NCBI GenBank assembly: GCA_016748015.1
Contig: JAAOMT010000599.1
Span: forward strand, 62,001 to 126,000
Direction: 5' to 3'
Source: Geosiphon pyriformis uo1
Lineage: Eukaryota > Fungi > Glomeromycota
DNA: 64,000 nt
The position numbers and the translations under genes were made by a program. Below are positions 3,895-56,238 of the stretch, one piece after another (within the stretch, counting starts at the first letter, position 1; each line of letters opens with the position of its first letter). The notes beneath the pieces are model-generated. The model did no database searches and was not told where the DNA came from. It saw only the letters and a program-made list of their open reading frames with translations.

Positions 3895-5765
3895 TAAAAA
3901 AGAGATTTGGAAAGTGCACCACTAGCCAAAACCAAACTGTTAAAATATATTAACAAATTCAGCACCAAAACAGTAAGTCCTTCTATTATGCTCTCTAGTT
4001 TAGCTATCTCTAAAAGAGTGGATGAACCTGAAATTGTAGCAGTCTTTTTACTAGTGGCCTCACTTAAACCCTCTCCCATTACTATATTACTTACTTGAAT
4101 TTGTAATAAAGAAGTTATCAGCAGCTAACATTCAGGACTAGACTGAGAAACTGTTGACATAAGTGATTCCAATCTCTTAGCCAACTCACTAATTTGTCTT
4201 ACAAGGCTAACAAAACTGCTTTCATTGCTAACCAAATGTGTTTCCAAATCATTCACAACAGATAAAAGAGGTTTACCATTATTAATAAAACCAAGATGTG
4301 ATTTATTACTATAAAAAGCACATACAAAAGAAATGCCAACTATTAACACCCAAGTTTTATTACCAAAAACCAAAAAATGAGAGACTGGCACAGATTTCCT
4401 CTTATAAATCTTAGTCAACTTAAACTAATCTTAAGCTAAAAGAAGAGTTTTTCTGCTCTTAGAAGCCATGAATTTTTTGACTAACTTATAAGCAAGAAAT
4501 ATGTAATCTGAAATACTACAAACTAAACACAAAGCCAGAAACAAACAGAACCAGCAAAGACCAACATCTTTTATAACTGGAATAATGATAATTGCATTAA
4601 TCAAATTCAGCTCAAAACTAAAGCAAACAATAGCACAATAAACATAGATATAGTTAATAGAATCATAGTCAATAATACAAGTTTTTTTATTAACAAAACC
4701 AATAAACTCCCAAATATTATGAGTGGTTGTTTTCATAGGAAGCATATAAAGCAAAGCCCTAAATTTATTTTTGACATTTCATGTTTGTTTATTAATATTA
4801 GTCCTAATTATGCAAACTGTATTTTTCTTAATAAAAATGGACTATTCAGAAGTCAAGAGATTAGCCTGATTTTAATTTTCTAATTTAATGATTGCCTTTT
4901 GTCACAAATCAATCAATTGAATTTTGATCGACTTAATAATTCCAAATTCAAATATAGCAGTATATACAGCCTTAATAAATGTTTCCACAAGAATTTTTTT
5001 CAACACAATAGCTCGATTTGTTTGAATATTAACTGAACACTTGAGATTAATGTTTACCATAATATTTTGATTGTTAGCCAATTTTGACACAGCCATTATT
5101 GCTTTTTTAAAAGTAAAGAAAGCCCAGATAATTTCACCAAATTTTGAGAGGATAGAGATCTTTCCAAAACTATTCACACCAGAAAAAATTTTTTTGACAA
5201 AATTCAATTTATCCTGAAAAAATTTACCAGCCACTACTATAAGATTAATATCTAAAGCAAAAAACTTCTTAACTGAAACTTGAATCATAGATTTGAGAGA
5301 CAAAAGAAAAGAAAACAAAAAGAATTCATTTAAAACATTATTGTTATCATTATTGTCTACATTAAAATTAAACATACCCAGAAGCTTTTTAAGAACATAT
5401 TTCATAACTATTTTTTTAAGTTTTTTGGGTGTTATATTAGTATTATTATCACCAAAATTCTTTTTATTCTTTTGTTGAAAACTTGTCTCTTCCATCAAAT
5501 ACTCTTTTTTTATATCTACACTCTCTGATTTAATAGTATTCTTACTTTTATGTCCAGCCAAATTACCAAAGGCACAGTAATAGATTTCTTTAATAAACCA
5601 CTCTTGTGCTTTTTTAACAGAAAGATTAACAACAACAGGACCAAACAATAATTTTTTCTTGGACTCTTTTATAACAGAAATGTTATCACTGTTAGCAGTC
5701 TTGTATTCAAACAGAAAAGATTTAGAAGTATCTAACTGAATATTAAAAAAGAATAAAAGCAGCAA
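3891..5765 (-). pseudogene. LINE ORF1 (gag-like nucleic-acid-binding protein) pseudogene
   Basis: Fragments 4902-5765, 4431-4754, 4125-4418 and 3894-4079 align with ORF1 at 53174-54994 (e.g. SLVRQISELAKRL). Confidence 0.85.
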
Positions 5766-21761: not shown

Positions 21762-22745
21762 TATTACCAGAGGTTTTTGGTCTCTTTTCTTGAATGTTGT
21801 TAATGTCTGTTTGTTGTGAATTCACGTTTTCAGAAAGTAGTTGGATCTCCAGTAACTGAATTTATCTTCAAATTATCTCCTATAATTTGAACTTGCTGGG
21901 CTTATGAGTGGAATGGCCAATTCCATGCCAGTTGCTTTATGTAGTTATGTTGTAGTAAACATCAACTCTTTCCCAAGAATTGCTCATCTGAAAGCTCACT
22001 AAAAATGTGTAGTTACTTTGCTGTGAAAGTCAACTCTTCTACAAGAATCTTGTCTGTAGGCTACCCTAATGATTGTAATAAGAAAAAATAAATAAATAAA
22101 TAAAAGAAATGTAAAAGAAATAGGATTTTATCAAGAGAAACGTTTTTCTATTCAGGCCTGAAGTCACTAACAGTTTACTGAAATTGGTAGCTAATCAATT
22201 TCAAAATGTTAGTTGGGTTTTGGGGATTTTCCAAGTGCAATAATTAAAGAATTTGATTTTTTGAATTATTTGATATTTATTTCTTTTTGTGTGTGTAGGA
22301 ATGGTTCTAAGTGATAAATCTAAAGTAAGATACATTTTCTCAAAGTAAGATGCTCTTCTTTTATACAACTTGTCGTAACACTATTCTATGAACTTGAACT
22401 TTGCTATTTTCTACAATTTCGCTAAACTAAAGATACATTTTGGCAAACTACAAGTTATTTCTGCAAACTATTAAATATTTTGGTGAACTATCAATTATTT
22501 TGGCAAATTTCTACAAATTTTGGTGAACTTTTGAATGTTACATAGTTCAGGGTATTGCATAATTGATCATTGCAATTAGATTATATTTGTGTTGTGTACA
22601 AATTGGGTTATTAATTTAAATGATAATTTTGGACATTTTGCTAATGTAATAAGTGATAATTTGAAATGATAATATATGCTAATTAATGATAGGATTTATA
22701 AGATAATTTCATGCTAAATAATATCTCTAATTTCATTTGATAACA
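21762..22745 (-). repeat. 3' LTR of element A
   Basis: Direct repeat of 30664-31647; contains a ~20-bp tandem array (attttggcgaacta-like) at about 22430-22530. Confidence 0.97.
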
Positions 22746-23433
22746 TAATCTCCTTCTCAAGACTGAGCTCCGTCAAAGTCCAAGTACTGTCTGTAATTTC
22801 CAGATAGTAATCCAAAATTATTGAAAAAATTTGGTCTGAAAATTGTTGAAATTTCAGTTCTGTAAGCTTTTCAATGTATTGAATCTTCAAAGGTCGTAAA
22901 ATTGGGTTTTGTAGGACATTTTCACAGGTGTGAAATAGGTCATAAAGTCTAAGAGCAGCTCTGAACTTGTAGTGACTGTTTGTTGGTCCAGCTGTTGTCT
23001 TGAATTCATTGCAGAGTTGTTTTTGAATAGCTTCTTTTGTGAGGTTTGCTGTTGTAAGTTCCAGTTTCCATTCGTAGAGTGTTTTTCCAATGTGGAAATA
23101 TCTATAGATTGGAGAATATTCAGTGTTTTCTTCATTGAGACACAGTTGAAGTCTTTGTTGAATTGTAGCATTTGGTGGAATACTAATTGGAGTGAGCATT
23201 AGGTTTTCTCTTAAAGCAAACTTTAAAAGTTCTGGGAGGTGAATTCCAGAATAACTTCTTGTGTTCTTCTTATATGGGTAATATTTTTGTGAATTTGGGG
23301 CTAAATTTGTAACTACTTCTGTTTGGGTATAATTAATGTGGTTTCCAGTAACAGTAATAGATAATTTGGGTATTGTTTTTAAAGCTAACATTAGTTTTTG
23401 GGATAATTGTTAAATGTTTTGAGGAATAGTCAT
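22714..23433 (-). pseudogene. ORF3 of element A, uncharacterised protein of about 240 aa
   Basis: ATG at 23433 in frame with the 225-aa ORF 22714-23391 (one intervening TAA); homologues at the same position in B, C and D. Confidence 0.8.
22746..22760 (-). promoter_or_regulatory. Polypurine tract of A
   Basis: Minus strand GAGAAGGAGATTA immediately before the 3' LTR. Confidence 0.8.
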
Positions 23434-26400
23434 TATAAGAGATTTGAAATAAAAGAAAATTATTTTTGGTGTATGGGTTTTTATGTTATTTTTTTTTTTT
23501 CTTTGTTTTGTTTTTGGTGAGATTGTTTCTAAATTATAAGAGAATAACTAGTAAAATTAAATTAAGTGTTCAGGTTGGAAGATTGTTCAATGACAACTAT
23601 TGGTTCTAAGTTTCAGAGAATATCTTCGGGATTGACTAAAGAGGAATGTGTACCAATTTGTGGAATTAATGGTTCAAAATTGTTTCTGAAATGATAGTGT
23701 TTCAAATGATCTCTATGTGCAACTTTTGCTAGGATTTTGTTATCAAGTCTTAGCTTGTATGATCTATTGCCTAGGACTTCATGGATAAAGAATGGTCCAT
23801 CCCATTTATTTTCAAATTTTCCACTCCATTGTTTTTCAGCTTTAGTTCTGTGTAAGAGAACTTTGTTTCCAATTTTAAATTCATTGGTGACTGGAGACAA
23901 TTTGTCATCATGCCATTCTTTTTGTCGAGCTTGGGAGTGTTCAATATGGGTGGCTGCTATTCGTCGTTTTTCTTCCAATGTGCTAAGCAGAGTGTAGGCT
24001 TTTCGCTGAAGCGTTTCTTGGAAATTGTTTTCATTGATTGGTTGTGCTGAGTATGTTTCTACTGTGAAACTAATTGGTAATGTTGCTGTCCTTCTGTAAG
24101 TTAAATTAAATGGTGTGTGTTTTGTGGTATCTTGTTTTAGTGTTCTGTATGCTAACAACATTGATAGAATAAAGATATCTCACTCTTGCTCAAAATTGGT
24201 TAAGACTTTGGCTAATAACTCATACAATGTTCTGTTAAAATGTTCCACAAGTCTGTTTGTTTGTGGATAGTAGGGCAAAGACAGAGGTCTTTTGACATTA
24301 AATCGTTTGCAAATTTCTTGTATTAGGTTGTTCACAAAGTGTGTCCTCTGATCGGATAAAAGTTCAATTGGACATCTATGTCTACAAATGATGTTTTCAT
24401 AGATGAAATTTGCTACTGATTTTGCATTTGCTCGTTGAATGGCTTTGGCTTTGGGCCATTTAGTAAGATAGTCTACAGCTACTGCAATATAATGGTTTCC
24501 TTGAGTGGTAATAGATAGTGGTCTGACTAAATCAATACCAATTCAGTCAAAGAGTTGTCTAACTTTGATTGAATTTAATGGTTCAGTAGGGTGTGTTTTT
24601 CCTTTTCTTTGACAATTATCACAAGATTCAACATATTCATGAATGTCTTTTCTCATTTGAGGCCAAAAGTAGTATTCTAGTGTTCTTTGGATGGTGCTAT
24701 CTTTTCCGAAGTGTGCTGATAAAGGATCTAAGTACATGTTGTATAATATGGTCTCTTTTTTCTGTTCTTGTATTAATCTGAGTGGTTTGTTTGAGTTTTT
24801 GAAATTTTGATAATAAATAATGTTGTTGTGTAGAAAATATTGTTTGGCTTGCTGTTGTAGTCAATGTTTTTTATCTAGAGACCAATCTGTTGGAATTGTT
24901 AATATTTCCAAATATTGTTTGAGATTGTTATAGTTTTCTGAATTCATTGTTTGTTGGCTCTTTTGGTTGGTTAAGTTGAGTGTTGGTTTTTGTGTTTTCT
25001 AATCTTGTCTTATTCTGGAGAGACAGTCAACATTGGTGTGGAGTTTTCCTGGTTTGTGATGTACTATGTATCAATAGTTTGCTAGAAATCCTGTCCATCG
25101 GGTTTGTTTTGCATTCAGCTGAGTATTTTTGTTTTGAAGCCATTTGAGTCTAATATTATCAGTGATAATATCGAATTTTTTAGGCCTGAAATAAAAGTTG
25201 AAGTGATGTAGGGCCCAAATTATGGCTGCTGTTTCTAGTTCTGTGGCAGAGTAGTTTTTCTCAGCTGGTTTTAATGTTCTGCTAGCATAAACAATTACTC
25301 GCTTATTTCCATTGTCATCTAATTGTGATAAGATGACACCAAAGGCAGTATACGAAGCATCTGTAGCTAGTCGAAATTGTTTGCTGAAATCTGGGTAAGC
25401 GAGGATTGAAGCTGTTGTCAGTTTTTCTTTGAAAATTCCAAAAGCTTTTTGGTGTTTGGTAGTTCATTTGTATTCAACGTTTTTGGTGGTAAGCTGGTTG
25501 AAGGGTTTTGTAATTTTCAAGAATCCTTTGATAAACTTCCGATAATAGGATGCTAATCCTATGAATCCTCTTAGTTCTGTAGTGTTTTGAGGAGTTTTGA
25601 AGTTTTTGACAATGCTGATTTTTCCAGGGTCCGGTTTGATTCTATCTTTACTAACAATATGACCAAGGAAGACCAGGCTTGTTTTTCCAAAGTAGCATTT
25701 TTTGATGTTGAGTTTTAGTCCTGCTTTTTGTAATCATTGAAAAACTTCTCACAGGTGTTTTAAGTGTAATTCGAATGATGGAGAATAAACATCAGTATTG
25801 TCAAGATAAATGACTACTGACTTTCAAAGGAGTTCTTGGTACACAACATCCATTAATCTCTAAAATGTTGCTGGTACATTGCATAATCCGAAAAGCATTA
25901 CATTGAACTCGTAATTTCTGTCTTGGGTGATGAATGCTGTTTTGGAGTGATCTTTGGGATCCATAGCAACTTGCCAGTAACCGCTTTCTAAATCTAGTGT
26001 TGAAAAATATTTGGATTTTCTAAGGGCATCTAACATGTTATCAATTTGGGGAAGGGGGTAGACATCTCCAATTGTAACACTGTTGAGTTGTTGATAATCA
26101 ACACAAAATCGGATCTTTCCATTTTTCTTTTTAATTAGCACTACAGGTGAAGCCCAAGAACTCATGAAGGGTTGGATGAGCCCATTGTTAAGCATTTGTT
26201 GTACTTTTTTTCGGATGAATTGGTGGCTTTCTGGAGCAATTCGATATGTTTGTTGTCTTCTTGGTTTGGCATCTCCTGTATAAATTTGGTGTTGGACCAA
26301 ATTGGTTCTTCTTAAGTCATTGTTGTTTTCAGCGAAGATATCGGCAAATTCTATAATTAGCTCTTTGAGCTGAATCTGTTGTTGTGGTTTAAGTTGTCCC

Positions 26401-26839
26401 ATGTTGATTCAAGATAGTTTTTCTATAACAACATGGTAGTTTTCGGAGCTGGGGTTTGGGTTGATTTTTGGTAGTGAATGTCCAATAATTTCAGAGAAAT
26501 CAGGGACTGTTTGGGGTAATTCTTGTTGAAATATATTATTGTAAATAACTCCAATTTCTAAATTATTTAATAAAATTATGAGGTAATTATTGGGGTTGTA
26601 AAAAGTAACTCAGACTTTCTTTGTTTCTTCTGGAATATAAATGTTTGGGATCTAAATATTATGTTTCAAGCAGACTTGTTCATTGGACTCAAAAATTTGT
26701 TGTGTGGTTGTTGGCTTTGGGCAGGTGTAGATTTCTGGATGTTCTCTAAAGGGTGAGATGGTAATTGGTTGTGGAAGTCTGAGAATCTGGTGGGATTCAT
26801 TCTGTATATTAAGAGCTATATTAACTGGAACTGTGAATC

Positions 26840-27240
26840 GTCCAGTTGAACCAAAATTTTGGGTTCCTCTATCGCTTTTTCCTAATTGTTCTCTTTGATT
26901 GACTAGTTGCAAACCCAAAATGTTGATTAAGGGTAGATAAATAGCTTGGGCAATTTTTTCAGCATGTTTGATCTTGAATGGTTTGTCAGTTTCATTTTAA
27001 AGCATCACTGTAATGTCTCCAGTATATCCAGCATCAATTATTCCTCCTCTGACATTGATTTCTTTGCTTGCCAAAGAGGACTGGGAGGTGATTTGAACCA
27101 TTGCTTCTGGCGGAATTTCGAGTGCAATTTTGAGGTTGATTTTTGTGAGAGATTTGGGTTTGAGAACAAGAGTATCCTTGCTTGGATATCTTAGGTCATA
27201 TCCAGCATCAATTTCATGTGCTTTTTCGGGTTTTATTTCT
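26840..27240 (-). pseudogene. dUTPase domain within pol of A
   Basis: All five trimeric dUTPase motifs: DAGYDL, SQSSLA, GIIDAGYTGDI, EKIAQ, RGTQNFGSTG. Confidence 0.92.
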
Positions 27241-30200
27241 TGTCCGTTGTTGTTGAAGTATTTAAGTTGTAAGGCAGGCTGATTTTTAATAAGGTAGATG
27301 GGTGTTGTTTCAATTTCTTCCATTGCTTCAGGTTCTCCAAATTCAATTTTATTCTCATCATTTTCGCTGGGCAAAGGGATACTAAGAGCATAGCATTCAG
27401 GACACCACTGTTCATCACAAGGCATAATGCATTCTTCACATAGTCTAATGTTTATTTGCTCTAATTGTTGAATTTGAGCTTCTTGGGTTGGGTAGGTGTG
27501 ACTTGCAATTTGGTGGTAGACTTCTACTTCGTCTTTGTAATCGAATTCAGCTAATTCTATGATGTATTCAATGTATTCTGCTTTCTTTATTTGACAAACA
27601 TCTTTTTTGATAGCTCTATTAATTAATGCCATTGCTAAGTCGAAAATCATTTCGGCATCATGGGGGTAGTGATAAAGTTTGTTGAGAGCACTGTTGTATG
27701 CTACATTAAAGAGTGTTTCTCTTTTTACTTTTTCTGAAATTGATAAAGCATATTGGCAGGTCTGATTGCAGACTCCTCCTCTCATGGCTACATCAATCCA
27801 ATTGCATTCTTCCGGTAGCATATCTTCACAAGTCAAACAAGGAGTGTTGTCTCATTTTCCGCTTCTTTTTATTAGATGGCCCCATTATTCTCTGTGGCAA
27901 GCCTTGCAGTAATAACAAGTATGATTTTTATATTCTTCTTCAGGTAAAATGCAGGCTCCCATTAACAATAGTTTCTTGTGGTAGTCTTTACATTTAAGGA
28001 GAATATAGGGGTGTTGTTTCCTTGGTTCAGGTTTTGAGTAAGGGATATTCCATCCAGAGGTTTCAGATTCAGAGTATGAGGTAAAATGTTCTTGTTCTGT
28101 TTCATTGGCCCAGTTGGACGTTGATCCAAGAGCCATGAATGTTTCAATGAGGGGTTTTTCCTCTTCCAGTTTGAATTCAAAAGCCAGGGTTTTTTTAGAG
28201 CATTTGTTGAATGTACTACAAGTGGCAGGTACCCAGGCGTGTTGTTCTTGGTAGGAGATTGTTAACTCTTGTGTTTCTCAATTCAGATTAGCATTGGCTT
28301 TTTAAAGCCAATCATTTCCGATAAGAGCTTAGTACTAGGGTGCATCCATTACAAAAACTTTGACTGGAATGGTAATTCCATCAAGAGTGAATGGAAAATT
28401 GTCAATTTCTTCTACTGGGGTCTTTTTCATGCCATAGGCAGTGATGATTATTGTTTGAGCTGATTGGTCGACATTTCTCTTCAACTGTTGCATTAACTGG
28501 TAGATAATAATGCTTCTGGCAGATCCACTGTTTAGGATCAAGTGAATTGTCTTTTCTTCGACTTCTGCTTCAATGTATATAGCCATGATTGCTTTTTGTT
28601 TATTGGTGGCTGCATTGCTAAGCAGGAATGATGACTCATTTGCTTCAAACTCAAAAGGGAATATATCTGAAAGGTTAGTGTTTTCAGCAATTCTGGCTGA
28701 TGAGATTATGGTGAGAATATAGGAAGGGTTTTGTTGTTGTGCTGCAGCTCTACCTTCCGAGAGTGCTGTATGGTAAAAATCCTGTTCTTCTGGCATTGTT
28801 AAATAACTGGGTTGAGTGTGGTAGTGGTTGGGTCTTGGTTGAATGGAATTTCGGGGAACTAATTGGTTGTTCGAACTGATTCTATTGTTGTTTACTTGGT
28901 ACTGGTTTTGTGGTGTGAATTGATTTTGTGTAATCAGTTTTCAAGCAGGTACTTGATAATGTTGTGTGGATGGTTGTTAGTATTGCTGTTGGATTGGCTG
29001 TAGAGCAGACTGATAATAGTTATTTTGGTATTGGGGTCTTGGTGGATAGTAAGCTGGTGGTGGTGGTTGATAATAAGATTGCTATAGTAAAGGGTAACGT
29101 TGATTACTCCTATTTTGTTGGTCTTGTTGTAGCTTTCTGCAATCTCTTTTCCAGTGGCCAGAGATTCCACAGTAATGGCAATTCTGAGGCTGGTTATTAG
29201 AAAGTGGTGCAAAGTTATTTTGATTTTGTCTTTGGGGTGGTTGATATCTTTGGGGTTGCTGTTGTTGTTGATTGGTGAAATAGTTTTCAACCTTCTTTGT
29301 GAGTTGGTCAATTTTTTCCTCAGCTGCTAAGCTGGTTTTTCCAATTGCCAAATTTACAAGTTTTGTGCAATTGGCCTCTTCTATGGCCATTTTGTATCTT
29401 TTTGCATGCTGTATGGCAGAGTTTAAATCTTCTGGCGCATGTGAGTGAACCTTTTTAATTAATTTATCTTTTAGACCAGCAATAAATTGATCTAAGATTT
29501 GAGCATTGGAATAATAATTATTTGTTTCAAGTTGGCAAATTTGTCTGAGAAGTTTGTTGAATTTCTCGATATAAGTCATAACAGATTCGGAGGGTTCTTG
29601 TTTGATATTTCAAAAACGATTTTGAAGGGTAATGAAGGTATTATTGTCGGTGAACTGTTCAAGGAAGGCTGCTTTGAAAGCGTTCCAATCATTGAATGGG
29701 GCGGCCAAGTTTTCAAATCATTCTCCTGCTGTTCTTTTGAGAAAGTAGTGAATTGTTTTTAACATTCTGGCAGCATTCCATCTATTTGCATCTCCAGCTT
29801 TAGTAACTTGGTCAAGCCATTCTTGGGGACTGGTCTCAATGTTTTTTCCATTAAATTCAGGGATTTTTGCAATGTATGTTGTCATTTTGTCTTCTTCATT
29901 TTCACTGTCTATTGATTCTTCTTCAGATATTTCAGGTTCGTTTTCTTTGTTCACTGCTGTCTCAAAGTGTTCACTTTGATTTTTAGCTAGAAAGTCAAGG
30001 AGATTAGAACTAGTTTGAAGGGGTTCTTGTTGTCTGATGGGACTTCTGAGTGATGTAAAATCTTCTGGTCTTGCAAATCAATTCAAAGGTGAATTAGTCA
30101 TTTGTGCTTGTGCAAGTGAAGCTGGAAAAGGTGTGATAGTAAGTGGAAGTTTTGAACTGGTTCCTTGTTCAGGTGTTTGTAAATGTTTGGCAGTTGTTTT

Positions 30201-30650
30201 TGGTAGTGTTGGAGTATTTGGGGTGGTTTTTGAGTCTTGTTTTAATTTGTTTTTGTCTTTGTTGCTTGTTTCTGTTTTTGATTCAAAATCAATAAAGTAT
30301 TGAGACTGCACTGGATATGTTTTTTCACAGTATTTGATAATGTTAAAATTAAGTTTGTGAAAGTAAGTGGCAAGTGTTTTGCTATTAAGGTTTTCAGTTC
30401 CCAACTGTGAATAGTGTGCTAAATTATTGTAAAGGTTGCTTCTAACTTCTGAGATATTGTAATTTCCAAAAAGATAATTGTTAATGTGGTTTTCAATGTA
30501 TTGGTATACTGATTTCTTGACAACTTCAATTCCGTCTAAAATGTTGAATCTTTGCTTGCAGTGGGTGTAAATTGATTGGTAATACTCTAGAGTTGTTGCG
30601 TCTGGTGTGATTGCCACTTTGAATTTTGTTGTTGCTGTGTTATTTCTGTA

Positions 30651-30661
30651 GGAGAGCACCA
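30651..30661 (-). promoter_or_regulatory. Primer-binding site of A
   Basis: TGGTGCTCTCC, 2 nt inside the 5' LTR, complementary to a tRNA 3' end ...GGAGAGCACCA. Confidence 0.85.
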
Positions 30662-30663
30662 AA

Positions 30664-31647
30664 TATTACCAGAGGTTTTTGGTCTCTTTTCTTGAATGTT
30701 GTTAATGTCTGTTTGTTGTGAATTCACATTTTCAGGAAGTAGTTGGACCTCCAGTAACTGAATTTATTTTCAAATTATCTCCTATAATTTGAACTTACTG
30801 GACTTATAAGTGGAATGGCCAATTTCGTGCCAGTTGCTTTATGTAGTTATGTTGTAGTAAACATCAACTCTTTTCTAGGAATTGCTTGTCTGAAAGCTCA
30901 CTAAAAATGTGTAGTTATTTTGCTGTAAAAGTCAACTCTTCTACAGGAATCTTGTCTGTAGACTACCCTAATGATTGTAATAAGAAAATAAAAAAAATAA
31001 AATAAAAAAAATGTAAAAGAAATAGGATTTTATCAAGGGAAACGTTTTTCTATTCAGGCCTGGAGTCACTAACAGTTTACTGAAATTGGTAGCTAATCAA
31101 TTTCAAAATGTTAATTGGGTTTTGGGAATTTTCCAAGTGCAATAATTAAAGAATTTGGTTTTTTGAATTATTTGATATTTAATTTTTTTTGTGTGTGTAG
31201 GAATAGTTCTAAGTAATAAATCTAAAGTAAGATACATTTTTTCGAAGAAAAATGCTCTTTTTTTATACAACTTGTTATAACACTATTCTATGAACTTGAA
31301 CTTTGCTATTTTCTACAATTTCGCTGAACTAAAGATACATTTTGGCGAACTACAAATTATTTCTGCAAACTATTAGATATTTTGGTGAATTATCAATTAT
31401 TTCGGCGAATTTCTACAAATTTCGGCGAACTTTTGAATGTTACATAGTTTAGGGTATTGCATGATTGATCATTGCAATTAGGTTACATTTGTGTTGTGTA
31501 CAAATTGGATTATTAATTTAAATGATAATTTCAGATATTTTGCTAATGTAATAAGTAATAATTTGAAATGATAATATATGCTAATTAATGATAGGATTTA
31601 TAAGATAATTTCATGCTAAATAATATCTCTAATTTCGTCTGGTAACA
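30664..31647 (-). repeat. 5' LTR of element A
   Basis: Direct repeat of 21762-22745, same length. Confidence 0.97.
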
Positions 31648-31721: not shown

Positions 31722-32544
31722 TAATATCATAATATAAATTATTTCTTAATTTTTTATTGTTGTGTATGTTTATGTACTTCTTCTCAGAAATTAAACTGAA
31801 ATTTACTCACTGTCTAAGATTTTTTTTGAAGCTATCTTTGCAATTTTCTAATATGTTTTTCTAATTTAGAAACATAAAATATTAATAGTCTTTAGCACTT
31901 TTCTTAATTTTCACAATAAAATTTTTATTAATTAGTAACAATGTGAATAATCTTGATCGTAAATTATTTTTCCAAGGAATTTAGCTAATAAATAATAGTT
32001 TCATTTAATAAATAATACAAATAAGTTTCTTAATACTTTAGATTATAATTATTCAGTTTTTAATATATTTTTTTATTTCTTTTTGATTAAAAATTTTTGT
32101 GAATATTTATTTTAAAAGTAAAGACTAAAAAATAATTAAAGTAGAACTGTTGAATAAATTGTTTAATAACTTGTTTTTATGATTTGTTAGATGATATCAT
32201 TATTTTTCTTAATATTAAAGCTACTATATATATACATATTTGTAGTTCTATAAAAAAACACATTATAATACTTTCTTTTTAGTATTTCAATCTGGTGTTT
32301 GTTACTATTACCAGTTGGTATTGACTACTATTATTAGTTGGTATTGGCCATTATTACTAGTTGGTATTGGTTACTATTACCAGTTAGTATTGGCTGCTAT
32401 TATAAACTAGTACTTACTATTATTGCAAAATAGTGTTTGCTATTATGTTAATTATTATCTTTCTAAGATTATTACTGTGCTATATTATGATTGGATAATT
32501 TATATTATTTTATGATTTTTTTGCTAAATTTTTAAACTGTAACA
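31722..32544 (-). repeat. Partial LTR of another family (E)
   Basis: Aligns with about 58520-59251; ends aaactgtaaca. Confidence 0.75.
32301..32410. repeat. 23-bp tandem repeat, 4-5 units, inside LTR E
   Basis: agttggtattg core at 32313, 32336, 32359 and 32382. Confidence 0.9.
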
Positions 32545-38568: not shown

Positions 38569-41500
38569 CTATACACTTATATTAACAGAAACTAGGTTAC
38601 CAATACCTGAAAAAAATGAACAAGACTTGCAAAAGCCAAAACAGACACCAAAAGCTTTAGCAATACCAAGCAATTTAATTATACCAGCCAAAAACCCCGA
38701 AACCAAACCAGAAACCAAGATGAAGATTGAGCTATCTACTGGGATCAGGCTATTTTTTTCCATAAATATGTGATGCTTAGCACAGACCAACCAAATGTCA
38801 TTCCTGAAAGCAAGACAAATAGATTGCACAAAATTAGCAATTTTAACACCAGCAACTTTGGGATCATGGAAGATGAAAATAGCCTCCTGAAGCATCCATT
38901 GAAAACAAAACTCTTGTAAAGAGCTGAGAAAAGTGGGAAGTCCAAAGCACAGGTTGACAGCAGTTGTAATACACCTAAAGAAGGAAGAGAGAGACCAAAA
39001 AGCACCCTCCATAAAGACATACAAGATTCCAAGATCTGATGACAAGCTGAATCATCAACCATATAAAAAAACACATGATTAGACACCTCCACCTTACCAC
39101 AATACAAACACAAAACACTAGAGTAACATTTATTGTAAATGCACTTCCAAACAGCCACAGAAAGCTGACAGTGCAAAGTCTTCATAAGATAAGTTCAAAT
39201 ATTAGCAGTCAGCCTGCTGGTGAAACCAGTGGCCATATGCAAATTAGGGTGCCAAATCCTGGAAGAACAAAGCCAATTGACATCTGAATGCAAATCACCA
39301 TCTAAAAATCCAGAACCAGAACTGATCTCTCAATTTGCATAACAAACAACACAAAAAACATCATAAACAAAGTGCCTAGAATTACCAGAAACAACACTAC
39401 CATCTACCAACAAAAAATATTCACTAATACAAAGAGGAAGATACCAACCAGAGAAAGACACAGTATTAGCGAAGCTATTAGCATAATCATTCTCCAAAAC
39501 ACCAGAGTGGCTCTTAATCTTGTGCTATTTAACACTTAAATTCTTACTGCAAATAACATTTCTGATATGCTGACATTTGACCCAACACCAATTGTAAAAA
39601 TCAAGACACACTAGGTCAAACTCCAATCTGCAAGCATTCAAAGCTGCCTGACTATCCAAAAACAGATGAACAGAATGAGCTGCAGACACGCACTTTAGAG
39701 CCAACGCTATAGCTTGCAGCTCTGTTAAAGTGGATGACACTAAGTCTTGAACACTAATATCCAAACCCAAATTAATGTTCTCAAAAAAGGCAGCAGTTCT
39801 GGCTCTACAACCAATCATGCCCAAATTCTTTAATGAACCATCCATGTACACAGACAAGCTATCAGTGCCAACCTGAGAAAAACAATCACAAACAGACACA
39901 AAATCATTAGAACCATGAATGTCCAGAGGGCCAACATCAGCCAATGCTGAGAGAGAAGAATGAGGAGCCACAAAAAATGCAACAAAAAGTTTGAACCATT
40001 TAGAAACTGGACTATGAGGGTCCAGCCTCTTCTACTGCTTAAAGATGTGCCAGCTAAAGACACTATCATTACAATCATAAAGCTGGTCCACAAAGACAAT
40101 GCTATAATGCTGGAAAGAAGATAAAAACTTGCAAAACAAAGACTCACCAAGAACAACAGACATAGGTACTCCACCATGAAACTGGAAAGAGCTGGCCAAA
40201 GAGCCACCCAAAGATAACTTGCAGTCAAAAAGAATGTGAACCATACCAGCTAAGAAATTATTAAAAACATTGACATGAATACAAGCAGGAGAAACCAATG
40301 GATAGACAGGTTGTCAACACAAAACCTATAAGTCATAAGACCTGTAACTGAACAAGTGCTCCAAAATCTCACCAGAGTTTGCAAAACTAATAAGCAAAGC
40401 AACCTTACCCTCAGATTGACACTACAAAAAAGACTTCAAACCATAAAAAAAGAGGTGGTGAATTGTATCACTAGGAAAGTCCAGTTGAAGACCAGATTTT
40501 AGTTTCAAGCCCTTGCGAATCAAAGCATCCCATTTGTTGTACACACTAATAAGAACAAAGCTAAACTGTGTTCTATAGCTTACAATAGGGTGAAGAATTG
40601 CCAAAACCAAATACAAGAACTGTTTATCTGAGACAGCTTTTTTCAATACCAAATTAGTGAAAAAACAAACATCTAAATGCGTCCTTATCAAACTAGATTT
40701 AGAAAAACCCTCAGTTGAAAGAAAAATACCCAAGTATCTATGAGACTCCCCCTTTTTGGCGATTGAAATAGGCAGACCACTTATAGAAAGAAAAGAATTG
40801 CTAATCCTGCTGTTAATAAGAATTACTACTGTTTTGTCATTGTTAATTGAGATATTATTGATCCGAAAAAATTCACTGGCAACATTGAAAATATGTTGAG
40901 TAGCACTTTGACTGCTACCAACCCAAATTATATTATCAATAAAGACACCAGCAGCAAAAAAGAAAAAATGCCCAGCCCAAGATTTGGCATGACCATTTTT
41001 AGAAATAAAATAAGAATTCAGTCTATATCTACATACACTCTCCTAATGCTTGACTTTACACAACAAAGGATCATAAAATATTCACCACAAAAGGGGAGAG
41101 AAAACTTCTCCTTGATCCAGATCATCATGTACATGATAACTATCCATCAAACCAAAATCTGTCATAATCCAGTTGGTATGATTATTGTGAATGTTGCCAA
41201 AAAAACGAATGAATTTGCTACATATCTTAATCCTGATCAAATTATTTTTGAGATATTCCCAGCCAACCAAATCATATGCTTTCCGCATGTTCTGCAGAAC
41301 CAGCCAAAGTTCTCAGTCCTTTTCCAAAGCATCTTCAACTACCAAACCAATTGCAAAAATAGGAGACTGAGTTGTTATACTCTTTAAAACCAAGAAATTG
41401 TCCACATAAAGGACATCAAAAGCACTATATGCTGAGGAGATTCTGTTAGAAAGAATCTTAAAAAGAATCTTACAAGCCATTTTGATCAAAGCAATAGAAT

Positions 41501-42547
41501 AAGTATTGGTCAAAACACCCTTCCACTCATATGGTTTAAGAATTATTGAGACCCAGACCTTTTTCCAAGAGCCAAACACTGATTCATCAGATAGACAAAG
41601 ATTCAAAATCACCAAAAACATATTCAGAACAGACTTATCGCAATGTTTCCAAAGTTCATTTGAGATACTAGACAAACCAGCAGCTTTGCCATTAAGCAAG
41701 TCAGAAACCACCCCAAAGAATTCATCAAAACCAATTGGGCACATTACACCAGAAAAGACCTCATCAAAAATATATTCCAAAGGTTAATATTGATGGCACC
41801 AATCAATTAATACATTATCAGCCACATGACACTTCCTGGTTCATTCCTCCATGATTACATTCACCTTAGACTTAACCAAACCAGATTCCAAAATCAGATT
41901 ATCATTAACCACCAGATAGTCTAGCACCACTTTACAAAACGGACACTTTAGTATACTCCTGATTGTATGATTCTTGTTAACCTCAAAGCTTTCCAGTCTC
42001 TTATCAATGGCAGACTTGATGTTTGCTTCTTTAGCTCTCAGAGATTCAGTGAGTTTGGAAGCACAATAAGACTTTCTAGCACCAAAAAGAGCAGAACAAA
42101 TATGATTAGAACTAGCATCAAAATCCACCAGATTTTGAACAACAGAAGACTTGACATTGTCCACAGAACTCCAGTATTTTATAAGATAAACAAAGGTTCC
42201 AGCATCTTCCTTATGTAAAACCTTAACAATCCTAGAAATTAAAAGCTCCAATTTATAAAATTTTGAAGAATCTTTGGTGAAAACTTCATCAAACTCTTTG
42301 AACCACTTTTTCTTGAAAATTTCATTAACCAAAAGAGTCATAATTTTGCACACAACACACCACATAGCATCTAAATTCGAAAACCTTACAGATGCAGTGA
42401 ATTTACCTGAGAACATTGTAGCATTGACCAGCATAAAACTTTTAAAATTATTCTATTTAATCTTATCAGCACTCTTGAAATTGAACTTCCATTAATCCTT
42501 ATTTGCCTGTTTGCAAAAAAAGTTTAATCTTGTATCTAAAAGACCAC
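38569..42547 (-). pseudogene. LINE 2 ORF2, 3' part (RT, RNase H, C-terminal CCHC)
   Basis: MRKAYDLV, DQGEVFSPLLW, GIFLS, VYMDGS..TELQAIALAL..DSQAAL, CLYCGKVEVSNHVF. Confidence 0.92.
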
Positions 42548-43378
42548 TGTTACAGGTGACTATTTCTGGTGTTGGATTAAAGAACAAACCTGTAACTTGA
42601 TACTCAAATCTAGTTGCAGTTGATAGTAGTCTGAAGATTTGTGTCTGAAAGGTTTGTATCTGAAGGGTTTGATTGAGTTCTTTGTATAATAGACAGAGAT
42701 TCAATGGTAATAGTTTTATCTGTAGCTTCTCAAAACTGCAGTTTCATCAATTTTTTTCTCAGCTTGATGGCTGGTATTCCTCCTGGTAAGCTATCTTCAA
42801 TCAAGTGTTCTACCCTTATTTTTGGGTCTTTTACCAGTCACGTTTATTCTAATATCAGTATCCTGTGCATTAATCCTCAATAGAGTTAGTAAACAACAAT
42901 AAAATTAAGGCAAAAAATAAAGAAAAAAAAAGAAAATAAAGAAAGAAAAGAAATAAGCTAAGGCGATTTGCAAGTTAGTATTCCATCAATAGCCATGATC
43001 AAGAGCTATTGTTCCAGTGTGGTTAAGTATTAATTACTATCAACATAAAGTGTTAATAGTGGCAATAGGTTTGAGATAACAAACAGTTATTTATTTGTGG
43101 TTTGGAAAGTTGTCTAAATAAAATCTAAACAGAGAGATCTGTTTTTTTAGCTTCTAATCTTACTGTTATATATACATAATTGAGATTTCTTAATTCCTCA
43201 ATTCTTCACAACAGGAATCCTGGAATTCTGGAATCCTGTAATTTCTTATAAGAATCTTGTAATTCCTGAAATCTTGCAATTCCTGAGAGGAATCCTGGAA
43301 TTCTATATTTTACTATGTCTACTTCTGATTGGTTAATAACTATGCTAATATATATTCTCTATATTTCTATGAGTAACA
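42548..43378 (-). repeat. 3' LTR of B (831 bp); PPT AAAAGGAGAGAATAA adjacent at 43379-43393
   Basis: Direct repeat of 51603-52473. Confidence 0.97.
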
Positions 43379-43379
43379 T

Positions 43380-44021
43380 TATTCTCTCCTTTTAATATTA
43401 AGCTCCGTCAAAATCTAACTCTGTTAATTCCTCTTCTTAAAGTATTTCCTAAATTTTATTTTCAAGAATTACTTGTGTTATTTGAGTCTGTAATTCTTCA
43501 AATTGAGTATTGGTAATCTTTCCTAATTGATTACTGATAACTGTATCTATTGCTTTATTAAGTAAGATTTCTGGTCAATCCTGAAATGCTATGTGTATTT
43601 GGTATATGGCTCAGGCCTGTGTGAATAAGTTGTTCTTTCCCACAAAATGTTCTAATTGTTGTAGTATTCTTGTGTCAAATAATTGCTTTGTTTTATCCAT
43701 ATATAAATTCTAGATATTCATGTGTTGTCTCAAGTAAAAATAACAATAGTTTCTTGGAAATTGTTATATTCACCAATTCCAAGTTTCTTTAGTCAAGTTT
43801 TGGTATAGTGACTCTTTTGTCGACTCTTTTATTGCTAATTTTACTTTCACAATGATTTTGTCAATGGTATTTTCTGTTTTCTTCTGTGTTCTATATGGCG
43901 ATGTCTTTCTAGTGTCTTAATATTGGATGGTTTATTGATTAATTGTAATTTTTATCTCTTGGTGTTGAATCAATTGAAAGAGTTGTTGTACTAGTGAGTA
44001 GATGTTGTCTGTAATTTCCAT
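43380..44021 (-). pseudogene. ORF3 of element B
   Basis: ATG at 44021; MEITDNIYSLVQQLFQLI...NYCYFYL...AIYQIHIAFQD*PEILLN...LGKITNTQFEELQTQI; stops and a frameshift. Confidence 0.75.
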
Positions 44022-44064
44022 TTTTTTGATATTTTTTGTCACATCTATATATTTTTTTGATAGA

Positions 44065-47000: not shown

Positions 47001-50000
47001 CTCTCCTTTCTATTGCTAACATGTATCAGCTATATGGTGGAATAGAAATTGTTTGACCAGTTGAGATAATTTCTCCTTGGCCAATAATTTTTTCCTCCAC
47101 CATATTGACTAGTACATCTATTTTACCTATTGATTCAAATCCCTGTATCTCTCTTGCTGTTATCCCTAATTCTTTTCTATTTCCCACTAAAACTAACTGA
47201 GCTATTTTCACCAGAGGCAGGAATATTGCCTGTGCTATCCTTTCATTTGGCTCTATAATATAGCCCTTTTCTGAATTATTTTGTAGTATAGCAATGATAT
47301 TTCCTACATATCCTGTATCAATTATTCTTCCTTTGATGTTTATTTCTTTTTTTGCTAAACTATTTCTAAATGCTAATTGAACTATTGTTGTTGCTGGAAT
47401 TTCCAGTGCTATTTTCAGATTGATATAAGTGCACAAATGGGGTTCCAATTTGATGGTGTTCTTTCCTGAATATCTCAGATTAAATCCTGTATTAGTATCA
47501 TGTGCACATTCTGGCATGATACCTTTATCATTATCACTGAACCATTTTAGTTCTTGCTCTTTGGTGAGGTCAAAAAGTACAATATATTGTTTGTAGTTTG
47601 AATTGGAGTTTGAATCTGAGTTGGAATCATTGTCATTGTTATAGCCATTTTGAATAAAGCTGGAACTGTTATTTTTGTTATCGTTATTGTCAGAGTTTGA
47701 ATTGGGGTTGGAACTCGATTCCAATTCTGATGTGTAGCTATTGATTGGTTCTTCTTCTTTGGGGATTGTGTAGATCATGCATGGTGGTGATCACAGAATT
47801 GGAAATTACATGGAATCAAACAGTGGTCACATAATCAGGTGTTGATTTCTTCCAAGCATTGCTCTTGCTCTTTTCTTGTGGGTGCTAGATTCTGATAGTG
47901 TTCATGGAATTCTTCTGGGCTGTTTTCTAAGTCGATAAAGGTGCCCAGATTGAGAACCAAAACAATGTCTGTTGGTTTTGAAGGGTTATTTTTGATTTCC
48001 AGAATTTCACTGGGCGAAGTGCCTTCTATTTTGGCATTGGCCATTTACCAGATCTTGTCCTCATTATGTGGATAGCTGTCTAGACAGGATATAGCTCAGT
48101 GCCATGCTGCTATGATGGGCATACCATGATTCATCCAGTTGCTGATAAGGATTGTGTATTGGCACAAAATGTTGCACATTCCTCCTTGACTAGGAATGTT
48201 GTTCCACATTCTTTCGTCAAATAATTGTTTGCCGCAAGCAAGACATAGTTTGTTGTCCTACTTTCCTTGTCTTTTTGGGTAGCTATATCATTCCCTATAG
48301 CAGAGCTTGCAATAGTAATGGGTTCGCATCCAGTAGTCTTTGTCTAGTGCTATCCAAGCTTCTATTAAGAACAGTTTCTTCTCACAGTCCTTGCATTTGA
48401 GAGATATATATGGTGGCTCTTTTATTGGTTCACGTGAGTATTCTCTTTTCCAGTCACTAGTTATTTTTTCTGTAGTAGTGGTTTCTTCAGGTATGTTTTC
48501 TTCCCTTTTTCCTTGTTCTTTTCTTTCTAATCTAGAATTGGTGGCATTTCACTTTGGTTGTTGTTGGTCCAAGTGTCAATAGTGGCTTCCCAGATAGGTT
48601 TTTCTCTTTGTTTCTTCTTTCCATTGTCATTGTTGTCCCAGGCGAGTATTGGTGGCAGTTTGTTGTGGTCGATGTTGGCCCATGAGACTTGATATGCTTT
48701 CCAGATGGGTTTCACTTTTTTTTTCTCGAATTTGATAAGTGGTGTTGATGGTGTAGTGATAGGATTAAAGTGGCCACACGTGGCTAGTACCTATGTGTAT
48801 CGACTGTTTTGGCTAAGCTGGAGCTCTTAGGTGTTTCAATCTAGAGTCATGTTGGTTTTGGACAGCCAGTTGTTCCCAACGAATGCTTGATATTGAGTGG
48901 CTTTTATGATGAGTACTTTGATTGGTACTATAATGTCATTGACTTCTATGGAGAAATCATCAATCTCTCCAATGGGTGTTTTGGTTGTTCCATTAGCTGT
49001 AATAATCCTGGTGCTAGCAGTACGATTAACTCAGCAATCTAATTGATTCATAAGTTGTCTTGTGATGATGCTGCCAGCTAATTTACTATTTAGAATCAGT
49101 TTGATAGAATGACCATCAACTTTCGCATCAGTGTACATCGTGGTAATGGATTTTTTCTTGTATGTTGCTCCACTGAACAAAAGTGGGTTGATGGTTTCCT
49201 CTAATTTGAAAGAAAAGATGGCTATGAGAGATTTGTTTTCAGTGACTGTTGCTGGTGAAATATTGTTGGTGAGTGTTGTTTGAAGTGGGTTGGATTCCAA
49301 GTTGTTGGTAGTGGCATCTTCTGGGGTAACCAGAAGACTTAAATAGTTCTGGGAATTTGGGTTTTGGGTGGAACCAGTACTCAGATTCCACTGTTAAAAG
49401 CCTGATGGTTGGTGAGAAAAGTTGGGGATTAGTTGATAAACAACCATCGCCAATCTCCAGTTTTGAGTGATTCTAGGTCTTGGGTTTCCTAATGTCATTT
49501 GAGTGGGGTTTTGGAGTGGTATTTGAATTGGTTGTTGGTGCTGATAAATTATTTGGGGCTGCGGCTGATAAATTACCAGTGGCTGTGGTTGATAAATTGG
49601 AGGTTGATATACTGGCAGTTAATAGATTGGTTGCTGCATCATTGGCAGGTAAGTGGTTTGATATTGGTCTTGATTTGGATAGTGATTCTGAGTCTGAAAT
49701 TTGCGATCAGGGTTTTGATATTAATTTCCCAATTATGGATTGTTGCTATAAAATTGACAGTCAGCTCTAAAGTGACCTTGTTTATTACAGTTGTGGCAAA
49801 CACGTGTTTTTGGCTGCCACAGCTGATTGGGTAATGATGATAATGATGATGTTGATAGACACAGCTAATTTTGGAAATGATTTATGTTTCCTGAATTATT
49901 GCGTCATTGTGGTGGTTGATAAATTGCATGATTGTCAACTAAGTATCCCTCTAGTTTCTGATTGATTGTATTACTGAATTGTTTTAGTTTGGAATCCAAG

Positions 50001-51543
50001 TCAGATGATCTGTTTATCACTAAATTTACAGCTTGGGCATGATTGGCTTCTAGCTTGGCTGCTTTAAAATCTCTGGCATAGATGATGGCAGTTGGAAGGT
50101 CAACTGAATGCATTGGACATACTCACTGAAGGATGTTACTGTGTAATTCTCTGATGAACTGGTTTAAGATCTGTGATGCTGTAAAGTAATCAGCTTGGAT
50201 TGCCTGAATTTGGTGCAGATTTCTATGGAAATGTCTCAAGTAAGTGGTGACTGCTTTTGTGTCCTCTTGTTTAATGGTGGTGAATGTGTTGATCAAGTGA
50301 TTGATACTATTGTTATTACTAAAGTATCTCAAGAATTCTGTTTTGAACTCATTGAAAGTTTGTGGTTTGGTGGCTAGGCTCTGATACTATGAGTTGGCGG
50401 TATTTTTGAGAAAATAGGGGATTGCTTAAAAGGCTCTACCATCATTCTATCTATTGGCCACTATGGTTTTTTCAACGTCATTGAGCCATATTTGGGCATT
50501 GTTTTTTTCGCTGGTAAAATTGTCAAGTTTTGTGATTGGTGCATAGGCTATTGGATCTAAGTTGAGTTGTTGTGGTGGTAGTTGAAGTGGTTGTTGTTGC
50601 ACAGATTGTTGGGGTGGTAGTTAAAGTGGTGGTTGTATGGGTTCAGCTATTGGATTAATTAGTGGTTGATTGATGATGATTACTGGAGATAAGTTTTGTT
50701 GATTTATTAAATCAGGGTTTTGATTATCCTGAGTTGGTGGTGTCTGAATATTTGAAGTTTTGATTTCTGGATTTTCTGGGCTTAGATTTTGCTAGATTTG
50801 AAGATTTGGGGTTTCAAATTCCAGGTTTTTCAGTGATCGGGTTCTGGTAAGTGAATTCTTGATCTTCAGCTTTTTTTTTTCTCTTCTTCTGATTCTATTA
50901 CTTCTTACGGATCAGAAATTCCAAAATCTGGGGGAGGTGGTAGTGATCAAAGTCCTGATGGCATTAATAATCGCGAGTTAAATCCTTCAAAATACACACT
51001 GTATGGTCCTAATAACTCTGCTTTTCTTTGTTTACTTTGGAAAAGGAATTGTCCAAATATTGATGTCATGTTTGATGTGATTGCGCCGGTAAATGTAATA
51101 TTAATGGTACTTCCAGATGTATAATGGTATGATGGATTAGTTGGGGACTCAACTCTTGTTTTTTTCTAAGTAGATGGTTGTATTTTTTTGGGTATTACTG
51201 TTAGTATTTGCAGTTTTCCTTTGTCTTTGCTCACATAAGTAATGGGGTATCTTTGCTGTGTATGGTGTTCAATTTCTTTGTTGATTTCCGTGATAATGGA
51301 GGCGAAATTGTGATTTGTTGGCAGGTTGGTATTTTGAATTAATTCACTGTAAAAGGCTTCTCTTGCCAATTTGATATTTACTGATGTTCCTAACAGATAG
51401 GCAATTCTTTTGTTGATGTAGAAATTGAAAGCTGATTTCACTAATATGTGGTTGTGGTTTGATCTCAAATGTTGACAGTAGTGTTGAAATAAAGATTTTG
51501 CGAATTCTAGATGGTTTGCTCCTATGTTTTCTGATTTTGCCAC
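44065..51543 (-). pseudogene. Gag-Pol of B, same domain order as A, with frameshifts and an integrase HHCC deletion
   Basis: CHNCNKQGHFRADC (49757-49798); LILNSKLAGS; Cys-rich region 47790-48410; IGIDLVGPL..DYLTKWPEA..PYHLQTNGLVEKFN. Confidence 0.92.
47120..47550 (-). pseudogene. dUTPase domain within pol of B
   Basis: NTGFNL, RNSLA, RIIDTGYVGNI, ERIAQ, REIQGFESIG. Confidence 0.9.
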
Positions 51544-51582
51544 TTTTAGATTTGTGTTGGTGCTGGTTTTCTGTAGGATTAT

Positions 51583-51600
51583 ACCTCACAGGGAGCACCA
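51583..51600 (-). promoter_or_regulatory. Primer-binding site of B
   Basis: TGGTGCTCCCTGTGAGG, 2 nt inside the 5' LTR; complement ...CCUCAC-AGGGAGC-A-CCA has T-stem/acceptor-stem geometry (Ile-UAU or elongator Met type, identity unconfirmed). Confidence 0.85.
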
Positions 51601-51602
51601 AA

Positions 51603-52473
51603 TGTTACAGGTGACTATTTCTGATGTTGGATTAAAGAACAAACCTGTAACTTGGTGCTTAAATCTAGTTGCAGTTGATAGTGGTCTAAAAGTTTGTGTC
51701 TGAAAGGTTTGTATCCGAAGGGTTTGGTTGAGTACTTTGTATAATGGACAGAGATTCAATGGTAATAGTTTTATCCATAGCTTCCCGAAACTGCAGTTTT
51801 GTCAATTTTTTTCTTAGCTTGATGGCTGGTATTCCTTCTGGTAAGCTATCTTTAATCAAGTGTTCTACCCTTATTTCTGGGTCTTTTACCAGTCATGTTT
51901 ATCCTGACATCAGTACCCCATGCATTAATTCTCAATAGAGTTAGTAAACAACAATAAAATCAAGGCAAGAAATAAAGAAAAAAAAGAAAAATAAAGAAAG
52001 AAAAGAAATAAGCCAAGACAATTTACAAGTTAGTATTCCGTCAATAGCCATAATTAAGAGCTATTGTTCCAGTGTGGTTAAGTATCAATTACTATTAACA
52101 TGAAGTGTTGATAGTGGCAGCAGGTTTGAGATAACAAACAGTTATTTATTTGTGGTTTGGAAAGTTGTCTAGATGAAATCTAAACAGAAATGTCTGTCTT
52201 TTTAGCTTCTAATTCTATTGCTATATATACATATTTGAGATTCCTCAATTCTTCAATTCTTCACAACAGGAATTCTGGGATTCATGGAATCCTGCAATTC
52301 TTTTGAGAGGAATTCTGGAATTTTGGAATCTTGCGATTCCTTGTAAGAATTCTGTAATTCCTGGAATCCTGCAATTCCTGAGAGAAATCATGGAATTTCA
52401 TATTTTACTACATCTACTTCTGATTGGTTAATAACTATGCTAATATATATTCCCTATATTTCTATGAGTAACA
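51603..52473 (-). repeat. 5' LTR of B (871 bp)
   Basis: Direct repeat of 42548-43378 plus one extra 40-bp unit in the ggaatcctg array. Confidence 0.97.

Positions 52474-56175: not shown

Positions 56176-56238
<63 letters not shown>

Follow-up and report, generated by a model that had tools for sequence, protein, structure and literature searches.

Two Ty3/gypsy retrotransposon families of the fungus Geosiphon pyriformis, here called A and B, probably make a long and a short Gag from one RNA, the long form starting at a GUG codon and the short form at the capsid AUG, which is reached by leaky scanning. We consider a near-cognate start with leaky scanning the simplest account because a conserved GTG with A at -3 and G at +4 follows a free frame, and is itself followed by no AUG before a Met at the edge of the capsid. 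The earlier note on this DNA had already suggested a GUG-initiated and an AUG-initiated Gag; at the level of sequence, Val at the codon and a gap in AUG and Met behind it support that suggestion.

Two decayed retrotransposon families in the window

The window, by which we mean the whole 64,000-nucleotide stretch of contig JAAOMT010000599.1 that was analysed and in whose numbering all positions are given, holds decayed copies of the two families. Both are full-length but broken, and both lie on the minus strand:

30664 to 31647, minus strand: 5' LTR of element A, 93.8% identical to its partner, with a TATA-like site at 31267, a hairpin near 31106-31080, a U-rich tract and a long 3' part
21762 to 22745, minus strand: 3' LTR of element A
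22714 to 29885, minus strand: capsid, zinc knuckle, protease, dUTPase, reverse transcriptase, RNase H and integrase of A by Pfam, then an extra ORF
51603 to 52473, minus strand: 5' LTR of element B, 86.6% identical to its partner, with a TATA-like site at 52229, AATAAA at 52150, a hairpin, a U-rich tract and TACTAAC near 51945
42548 to 43378, minus strand: 3' LTR of element B
55294 to 56231, minus strand: older, heavily decayed A-type copy with LTR end, start region and extension, 68.5% identical to 30056-31012

Paired LTRs, a primer-binding site and a polypurine tract are present, and Pfam domains follow the order capsid, protease, reverse transcriptase, RNase H, integrase. The best PDB match of the A reverse transcriptase is the Ty3 enzyme (E 1.7e-39). 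We assign A and B to Ty3/gypsy because of this domain order and because the reverse transcriptase is closest to that of Ty3 among solved structures. The capsid domains (Pfam Ty3_capsid/Retrotrans_gag) lie downstream of the A capsid ATG; fragments from the window score under the curated cut-off, the paralog model P0098 above it. The A copy is broken by a TGA at 30080 in the Gag extension discussed below, the B copy by five stops, a frameshift near 50875 and an ATA in place of the capsid ATG.

In both elements a dUTPase sits between protease and reverse transcriptase (26997-27851 and 47026-47790, minus strand), with a long Cys-rich region of no Pfam family ahead of it. Both also have a further sense ORF between integrase and 3' LTR, at 22714-23409 (minus strand) in A and as a remnant at about 43420-44050 (minus strand) in B. 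The A ORF runs 231 codons from stop to stop and has no Pfam match; its region is likewise ATG-poor.

Family-level statements draw on paralog proteins and contig tallies, used in place of a DNA-level family alignment. Depths come from contigs of one DNA run, possibly the window's own sample, the A tally covering the best 40 of 112 difference rows and the B tally all 20 differences at 45% or more. Note that the paralog proteins (239 examined for A, the window's own omitted) come from automatic gene prediction, which prefers ATG starts and creates spurious introns, and that all copies share ancestry. Named relatives of both extensions are Geosiphon pyriformis gene models (120 of 120 and 120 of 120 among the matches listed; 71 of 71), and one model is 99% identical to the window's A copy. 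A profile search of representative sequences returned 108 new models among the best 150 of 332 matches; 88 of the 108 reach 50% or more against A or B, and the remaining 20 we read as chimeric models of the two families.

A conserved GTG opens the Gag extension

Just past the primer-binding site, both families carry the motif AAA-GTG-GCA:

30644 to 30661, minus strand: A primer-binding site, inferred at 18 nt, its TGG start right after the LTR end, its 3' half decayed to CCTACAG in the window copy
30612 to 30620, minus strand: A AAA-GTG-GCA, proposed non-AUG start (GTG at 30617-30615)
51583 to 51600, minus strand: B primer-binding site, followed by CCTACAG, which by folding can pair with the site's 3' half
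51538 to 51546, minus strand: B AAA-GTG-GCA, proposed non-AUG start (GTG at 51543-51541)

The earlier note had placed the motif at 30617 and 51543, and we recover it there, at 30620-30612 and 51546-51538 on the minus strand. Its statement that the GTG comes just after an in-frame stop needs correcting, as the stops lie 15-16 codons upstream in both window copies.

Among 161 aligned A paralogs the start column holds Val in 148, Met in 6, Leu in 4, Ile in 2 and Asn in 1, and 9 further models begin there; in B it holds Val in 51 of 59, with 8 further models beginning there with Met. The family check proposed earlier, for an ATG at this codon, therefore returns Val and not Met. G-to-A decay at the start column has produced 14 Met and 1 Ile, versus 2 Met and 49 Ile at eight other Val columns (the former Met count is inflated by gene predictors; internal residues alone give 6 Met to 2 Ile). 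Since decay makes Met at this column and Ile at the others, the codon is GTG in several subfamilies.

A-A-A-GTG-G-C is shared at the start of a domain that is only 25% identical between A and B, and none of the 20 B differences at 45% or more touches AAA-GTG-GCA or CCTACAG. A at -3 with G at +4 is the favoured fungal context, and fungi use near-cognate starts placed in it (PMC5487733). What counts is the position of the motif in both families and not its rarity: the 8-mer AMAGTGGC turns up 5 times in the window, where 2.3 would be expected. One other candidate, AAAGTGGC at 54520, was rejected as it falls within an unrelated ORF. Directly behind the start, A paralogs have Ala in 105 cases, Val in 54 and Thr in 9, and B paralogs have Ala in 55 and Thr in 10. 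Counting against a GUG start, the hairpin following the GTG is weak (-2.6 and -3.0 kcal/mol).

The frame 5' of the GTG is variable. In A contigs a 1-nt indel at 30624 leaves one base missing in 46% of depth, 9 and 15 paralog peptides that run across the primer-binding site arrive at a common Phe-Lys-Val out of the window's two other frames, and 110 more models have other, probably spliced, upstream parts at this crossing. Given such varied frames into Phe-Lys-Val, the coding frame begins within a few codons of the GTG.

These data bear on the heptamer CCTACAG, which the earlier note took for a feature common to both families and, as an alternative to GUG initiation, for the acceptor of an LTR exon. 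Both copies in the window have it, and in B it is the majority state. In A, however, it is not a family-level feature but a decayed part of the primer-binding site: position 30650 is C in 85% of depth, and the paralog peptides here have Pro/Ser-Arg/Trp in 12 of 17 and Gln in only 5 of 17. Moreover, the indel at 30624 lies between heptamer and GTG and would break the frame in about half of the A family. Splicing to CCTACAG is thus unsupported in A and strikes us as hardly credible. Separately, the hairpin that CCTACAG can form with the B primer-binding site (51600-51570, minus strand) could compete with tRNA binding.

A different splicing scenario deserves more attention. The conserved signal might itself be a 3' splice site, AAAG/TG, with an LTR exon supplying the AUG (for instance that at 52051 in B, or an exon ending in A and so completing A/TG); spliced RNA would then yield long Gag and unspliced RNA short Gag, which would account for the AUG gap as well. 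Several gene models join an LTR exon exactly at this point, the column holds Leu in 4 A and 5 B models, and model P0125 begins at the 52051 AUG; moreover, a U-rich tract is present in the LTRs of both elements, with TACTAAC behind it in B. Yet these gene models are predictions, and any A-GTG contains an AG/TG that predictors use as an acceptor. For A and the main group of B the site reads AAG and not YAG, and a plain acceptor needs no conserved TG-GC on its exon side. Over the 40 nt preceding the GTG, both families are A/C-rich, with 6 T, and so offer no pyrimidine tract; the 3' end of an intron is expected to look otherwise. Finally, the A leader is without a strong conserved AUG past the TATA region, and we dropped its sole GTAAGT donor, at 30798, which is GCAAGT in the 3' LTR. 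On balance we judge splicing at AAAG/TG unlikely.

ATG and Met are depleted up to the capsid

The next family-level starts downstream of the GTG coincide with the capsid:

29883 to 29885, minus strand: first family-level AUG of A, at the start of the capsid domain, with Met in 91 and 98 paralogs at two adjacent columns
50549 to 50551, minus strand: B capsid start, ATA in the window copy and Met in the family (Met 21, Ile 4 of 25 paralogs)

Up to these positions, A has 2 ATG in 777 nt against a dinucleotide-shuffle mean of 8.7, and B has 3 in 1040 nt against 14.6, with 0 of 1000 shuffles as low in either case. The capsid regions are normal (14 versus 16.4 and 13 versus 14.0 expected). Further down, 0 of 254 overlapping windows in A and 0 of 245 in B are as ATG-poor; the poorest 777-nt window in A, in the Gln/Pro-rich Gag tail, has 3 ATG. 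The counts given in the earlier note (2, 3, and 16 in 480 nt of pol) are reproduced, and the depletion stands against shuffles, but the contrast with pol was too generous: that control is among the ATG-richest segments, and the A Gag tail comes close to the extension.

As had been supposed, decay explains the ATGs that do occur, all five being derived states and private to their copies. The A ATGs at 30101 and 29899 are reverted in 89% and 61% of family depth, and the three in B fall at columns that are mostly Thr or Ala in paralogs, or before an Ala column. Nor does the family have the normal ATG density that the earlier note had proposed looking for; the region is depleted of ATG and of Met at that level too. 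In A paralogs Met makes up 18 of 49,034 extension residues (0.04%) compared to 398 of 25,016 in the capsid (1.6%) and 1.05% further down; in B paralogs it makes up 77 of 20,468 (0.38%), at decay-prone Thr/Ala/Val columns, compared to 37 of 3,314 in the capsid (1.1%).

Out-of-frame ATGs are also scarce relative to codon-order shuffles (1 versus 5.7, P 0.012, and 1 versus 6.0, P 0.007). When the protein is held fixed, synonymous resampling reveals no extra loss of ATG (1 versus 2.6, P 0.13, and 1 versus 1.5, P 0.52), so that the signal rests on the absence of Met and on dipeptide choice. The extension avoids Tyr, His, Asn and Asp ahead of codons starting with G (4 versus 11.0, P 0.008), and C is kept in the few pairs of this kind that occur (3 of 5 versus 10 of 97 elsewhere, P 0.011). 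Part of this deficit is general to the element, as it is also seen in the capsid-protease region (16 versus 22.6, P 0.07). From these patterns we infer selection against ATG and against its CpG precursor ACG; in a related fungus, methylation of CG has been documented (bioRxiv 2021.03.30.436303).

The extension is very probably coding and carries a predicted helical domain

Ahead of the capsid Met, the in-frame extension spans 244 codons in A and about 330 in B:

30318 to 30617, minus strand: A five-helix domain of about 100 residues and no known family, predicted by AF2 (pLDDT 82.6), no Pfam match
29886 to 30317, minus strand: A low-complexity tether with an acidic end, 65% P/S/T/Q/E/K/N
50552 to 51543, minus strand: B extension with helical domain and tether, about 330 codons, broken in the window copy

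Might this stretch simply be an untranslated A-rich leader or packaging RNA that lacks stops and ATG by chance? The low G content of the region (11.6%) does lower ATG counts, no relatives are seen beyond Geosiphon among the matches listed, and a test for conservative change is not significant in 6 of 6 B paralogs. Against this, the frame is open for 244 codons at family level and fused to the capsid. It has 1 stop where the other frames have 9 and 25, and that stop, the TGA at 30080, is private decay, being C in 64% of depth with Arg/Gln/His/Cys in paralogs. Window stops are sense codons in paralogs of both families, so there is no separate ORF0 with its own stop before gag. Of the 239 A models, 155 align from the Val to the capsid in one stretch, 64 of them with no more than 6 gap columns. 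Substitutions between A subfamilies are conservative beyond what neutral simulation gives in 7 of 7 divergent paralogs (P at most 0.023); in 2 close ones they are neutral, which fits decay. The A and B domains, which the earlier note had called homologous, do align as proteins: hhalign scores 29.7 (E 1.4e-4) over 93 columns at 25% identity, and the highest of 30 column shuffles reaches 15.8. The predicted fold is also confident. We therefore regard an untranslated extension as very improbable.

The extension is predicted to consist of a five-helix domain on a flexible tether. In the A model, built from a joint alignment of 51 sequences, helices span residues 7-24, 31-50, 55-69, 74-77 and 79-100; a B-only model is weak (pLDDT 63.9) and has helices at similar places. 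Searches with the domain gave no credible Pfam family, no PDB match with the domain alignment, no hit in Foldseek at E 0.001 against PDB or a viral library, and no relatives in two metagenome scans and a phage collection. In fold comparison the best VIA Z was 6.6, with none at 8 or above; we took the weak matches to archaeal filamentous virus coat proteins (Z 5.3-5.7) as background. Signal or transmembrane segments are absent, the best 19-residue hydropathy being 0.41 over the whole A extension and 0.91 in the first 220 residues of B.

How ribosomes might reach the two starts

Transcripts presumably start near the TATA-like sites at 31267 (A) and 52229 (B). The A leader that follows has at most 2 uncertain ATGs; at the LTR ATG 30729, as at the ATGs 30101 and 29899 and the stop at 30080, 61-89% of family depth carries a non-ATG state or, for the stop, a sense codon. 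The B leader is less accommodating:

52049 to 52051, minus strand: B upstream AUG, located in the LTR hairpin and strong in context, opening a 36-codon uORF, present in both LTRs

Presumed leader AUGs of B at 52101, 52051, 51925, 51921 and 51778, the first three in both LTRs, show no alternative letter at 45% or more, a threshold that may miss three-state CpG sites, so that some of these AUGs may still be decay. Given these AUGs, and 52051 in its strong context, plain scanning in B would have to be helped by reinitiation, by shunting or by an intron in the leader. Such an intron is possible because a U-rich tract is found in all LTRs (about 31030-30965 and 52020-51930, minus strand) and in B is followed by TACTAAC; tract and TACTAAC might mark an intron's end or else be a 3' end signal.

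A hairpin recurs at a similar place in three LTR types (31106-31080, 52066-52043 and 13850-13825, minus strand). Its loop holds a 6-nt palindrome, TAGCTA in A and TGATCA in B's 3' LTR and family majority, resembling a kissing-loop dimer signal.

We suggest the following model. Full-length RNA would be translated with leaky scanning. Just past the primer-binding site, a minority of ribosomes would initiate at the GUG and make a rare long Gag; the others would continue over 730-990 AUG-free bases as far as the capsid AUG and make the main, short Gag. The model draws on a conserved in-frame near-cognate codon in strong context and on the lack of a family-level AUG up to the main one. As to the isoform ratio, we would expect it to fall in the range cited for near-cognate starts, which is about 2-30%, usually with leaky scanning (PMC3542737).

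Alternatively, the long form might start at the GUG with ribosomes getting there through shunting or internal entry; or else a separate, internally started RNA might give the short Gag, as for Ty1 p22. The leader is about 600 nt long, with a hairpin and uORFs in B; in rice tungro bacilliform virus (RTBV), shunted ribosomes land on an unstructured non-AUG site (PMC5902531), and the short Gag of Ty1 is made from an internal RNA (PMC5408680). An internal RNA, however, would not need the whole extension to be AUG-free, and we hold these routes to be distinctly unlikely.

If leaky scanning from the GUG is correct, the long Gag would be neither secreted nor myristoylated. More speculatively, it may co-assemble in small numbers via its capsid domain and present the helical domain where matrix would sit, as a module for host binding or targeting, though we hold this loosely.

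Comparison with known systems

The closest parallel is glyco-Gag of murine leukaemia virus (MLV), an in-frame N-terminal extension of Gag initiated at CUG, with GUG also seen by ribosome profiling; it is a minor isoform (6.7% of ribosome density), and its extension region is generally AUG-free (PMC5778647, PMC3542737). A and B resemble it in the proposed near-cognate start of an AUG-poor, in-frame Gag extension. Glyco-Gag, though, has a signal peptide and is glycosylated and displayed at the cell surface, whereas A and B have no hydrophobic segment; their extension, in fungal Ty3/gypsy elements, is 244-330 residues long with a predicted fold of its own. PEG10 likewise makes a Gag-like protein from an upstream non-AUG codon (CUG) and a downstream AUG, but it is a domesticated mammalian host gene in which the extension adds only 34 residues and the CUG is the major start (PMC2800197). 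In RTBV, as proposed here, the first start is non-AUG and used by about 10% of ribosomes, and about 900 AUG-free nt are scanned to the capsid polyprotein; unlike in A and B, the products are separate ORFs I and II, the codon is AUU and is reached by shunting, and the element is a plant pararetrovirus (PMC5902531, PMC3542737).

Among fungal Ty3/gypsy elements with a dUTPase, one Postia family has the same order of protease, dUTPase, reverse transcriptase, RNase H and integrase (PMC2864245); a Gag extension like that of A and B is not described for such elements in the available text of that source. The additional ORFs of plant LTR elements covered in a review lie after pol (PMC7264820). Our literature search, beyond whose reach lay most subscription papers including the Geosiphon genome papers, found no autonomous LTR retrotransposon with a non-AUG Gag extension.

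Retroviral matrix is a helical domain of about 100 residues at the Gag N-terminus, followed by a linker and the capsid, with an N-terminal glycine for myristoylation. The domain of A and B is similar in size, helicity and N-terminal position in Gag. It differs in having no Gly after the start in paralogs of either family, hence no myristoylation site, and in lacking a basic patch (9 basic and 8 acidic residues in A); the fold matches listed include no matrix structure.

Implications

If true, our reading would add free Ty3/gypsy elements to the gammaretrovirus and the domesticated gene already credited with non-AUG Gag isoforms, and would offer a simple way of dosing an accessory domain onto a capsid. 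One might go further, tentatively, and propose that in this lineage of autonomous fungal LTR retrotransposons a GUG start and a near-kilobase of AUG-free RNA set the ratio of capsid isoforms. To the particle, the rare isoform would add a long-tethered helical domain not described before, which would serve as a matrix-like accessory module, would have evolved independently of retroviruses and would perhaps help to move particles to nuclei in coenocytic hyphae; we consider this broader scenario possible but doubtful.

LTR elements make up 41.2% of the Geosiphon genome (PMC11952901), and families A and B matter for genome expansion because of that coverage. There is also a practical consequence, in that ATG-based annotation would truncate or mis-splice such Gags; hundreds of Geosiphon models are patched with invented first exons.

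Other repeats in the window

A different retroelement is present in several copies (1179-5261, 38569-42528, 52480-54544 and 59788-63743) with matches to reverse transcriptase and RNase H and no LTR seen. Tandem repeats of 23 nt occur at 32260-32443 and 59063-59154, within a repeat family present twice in the window.
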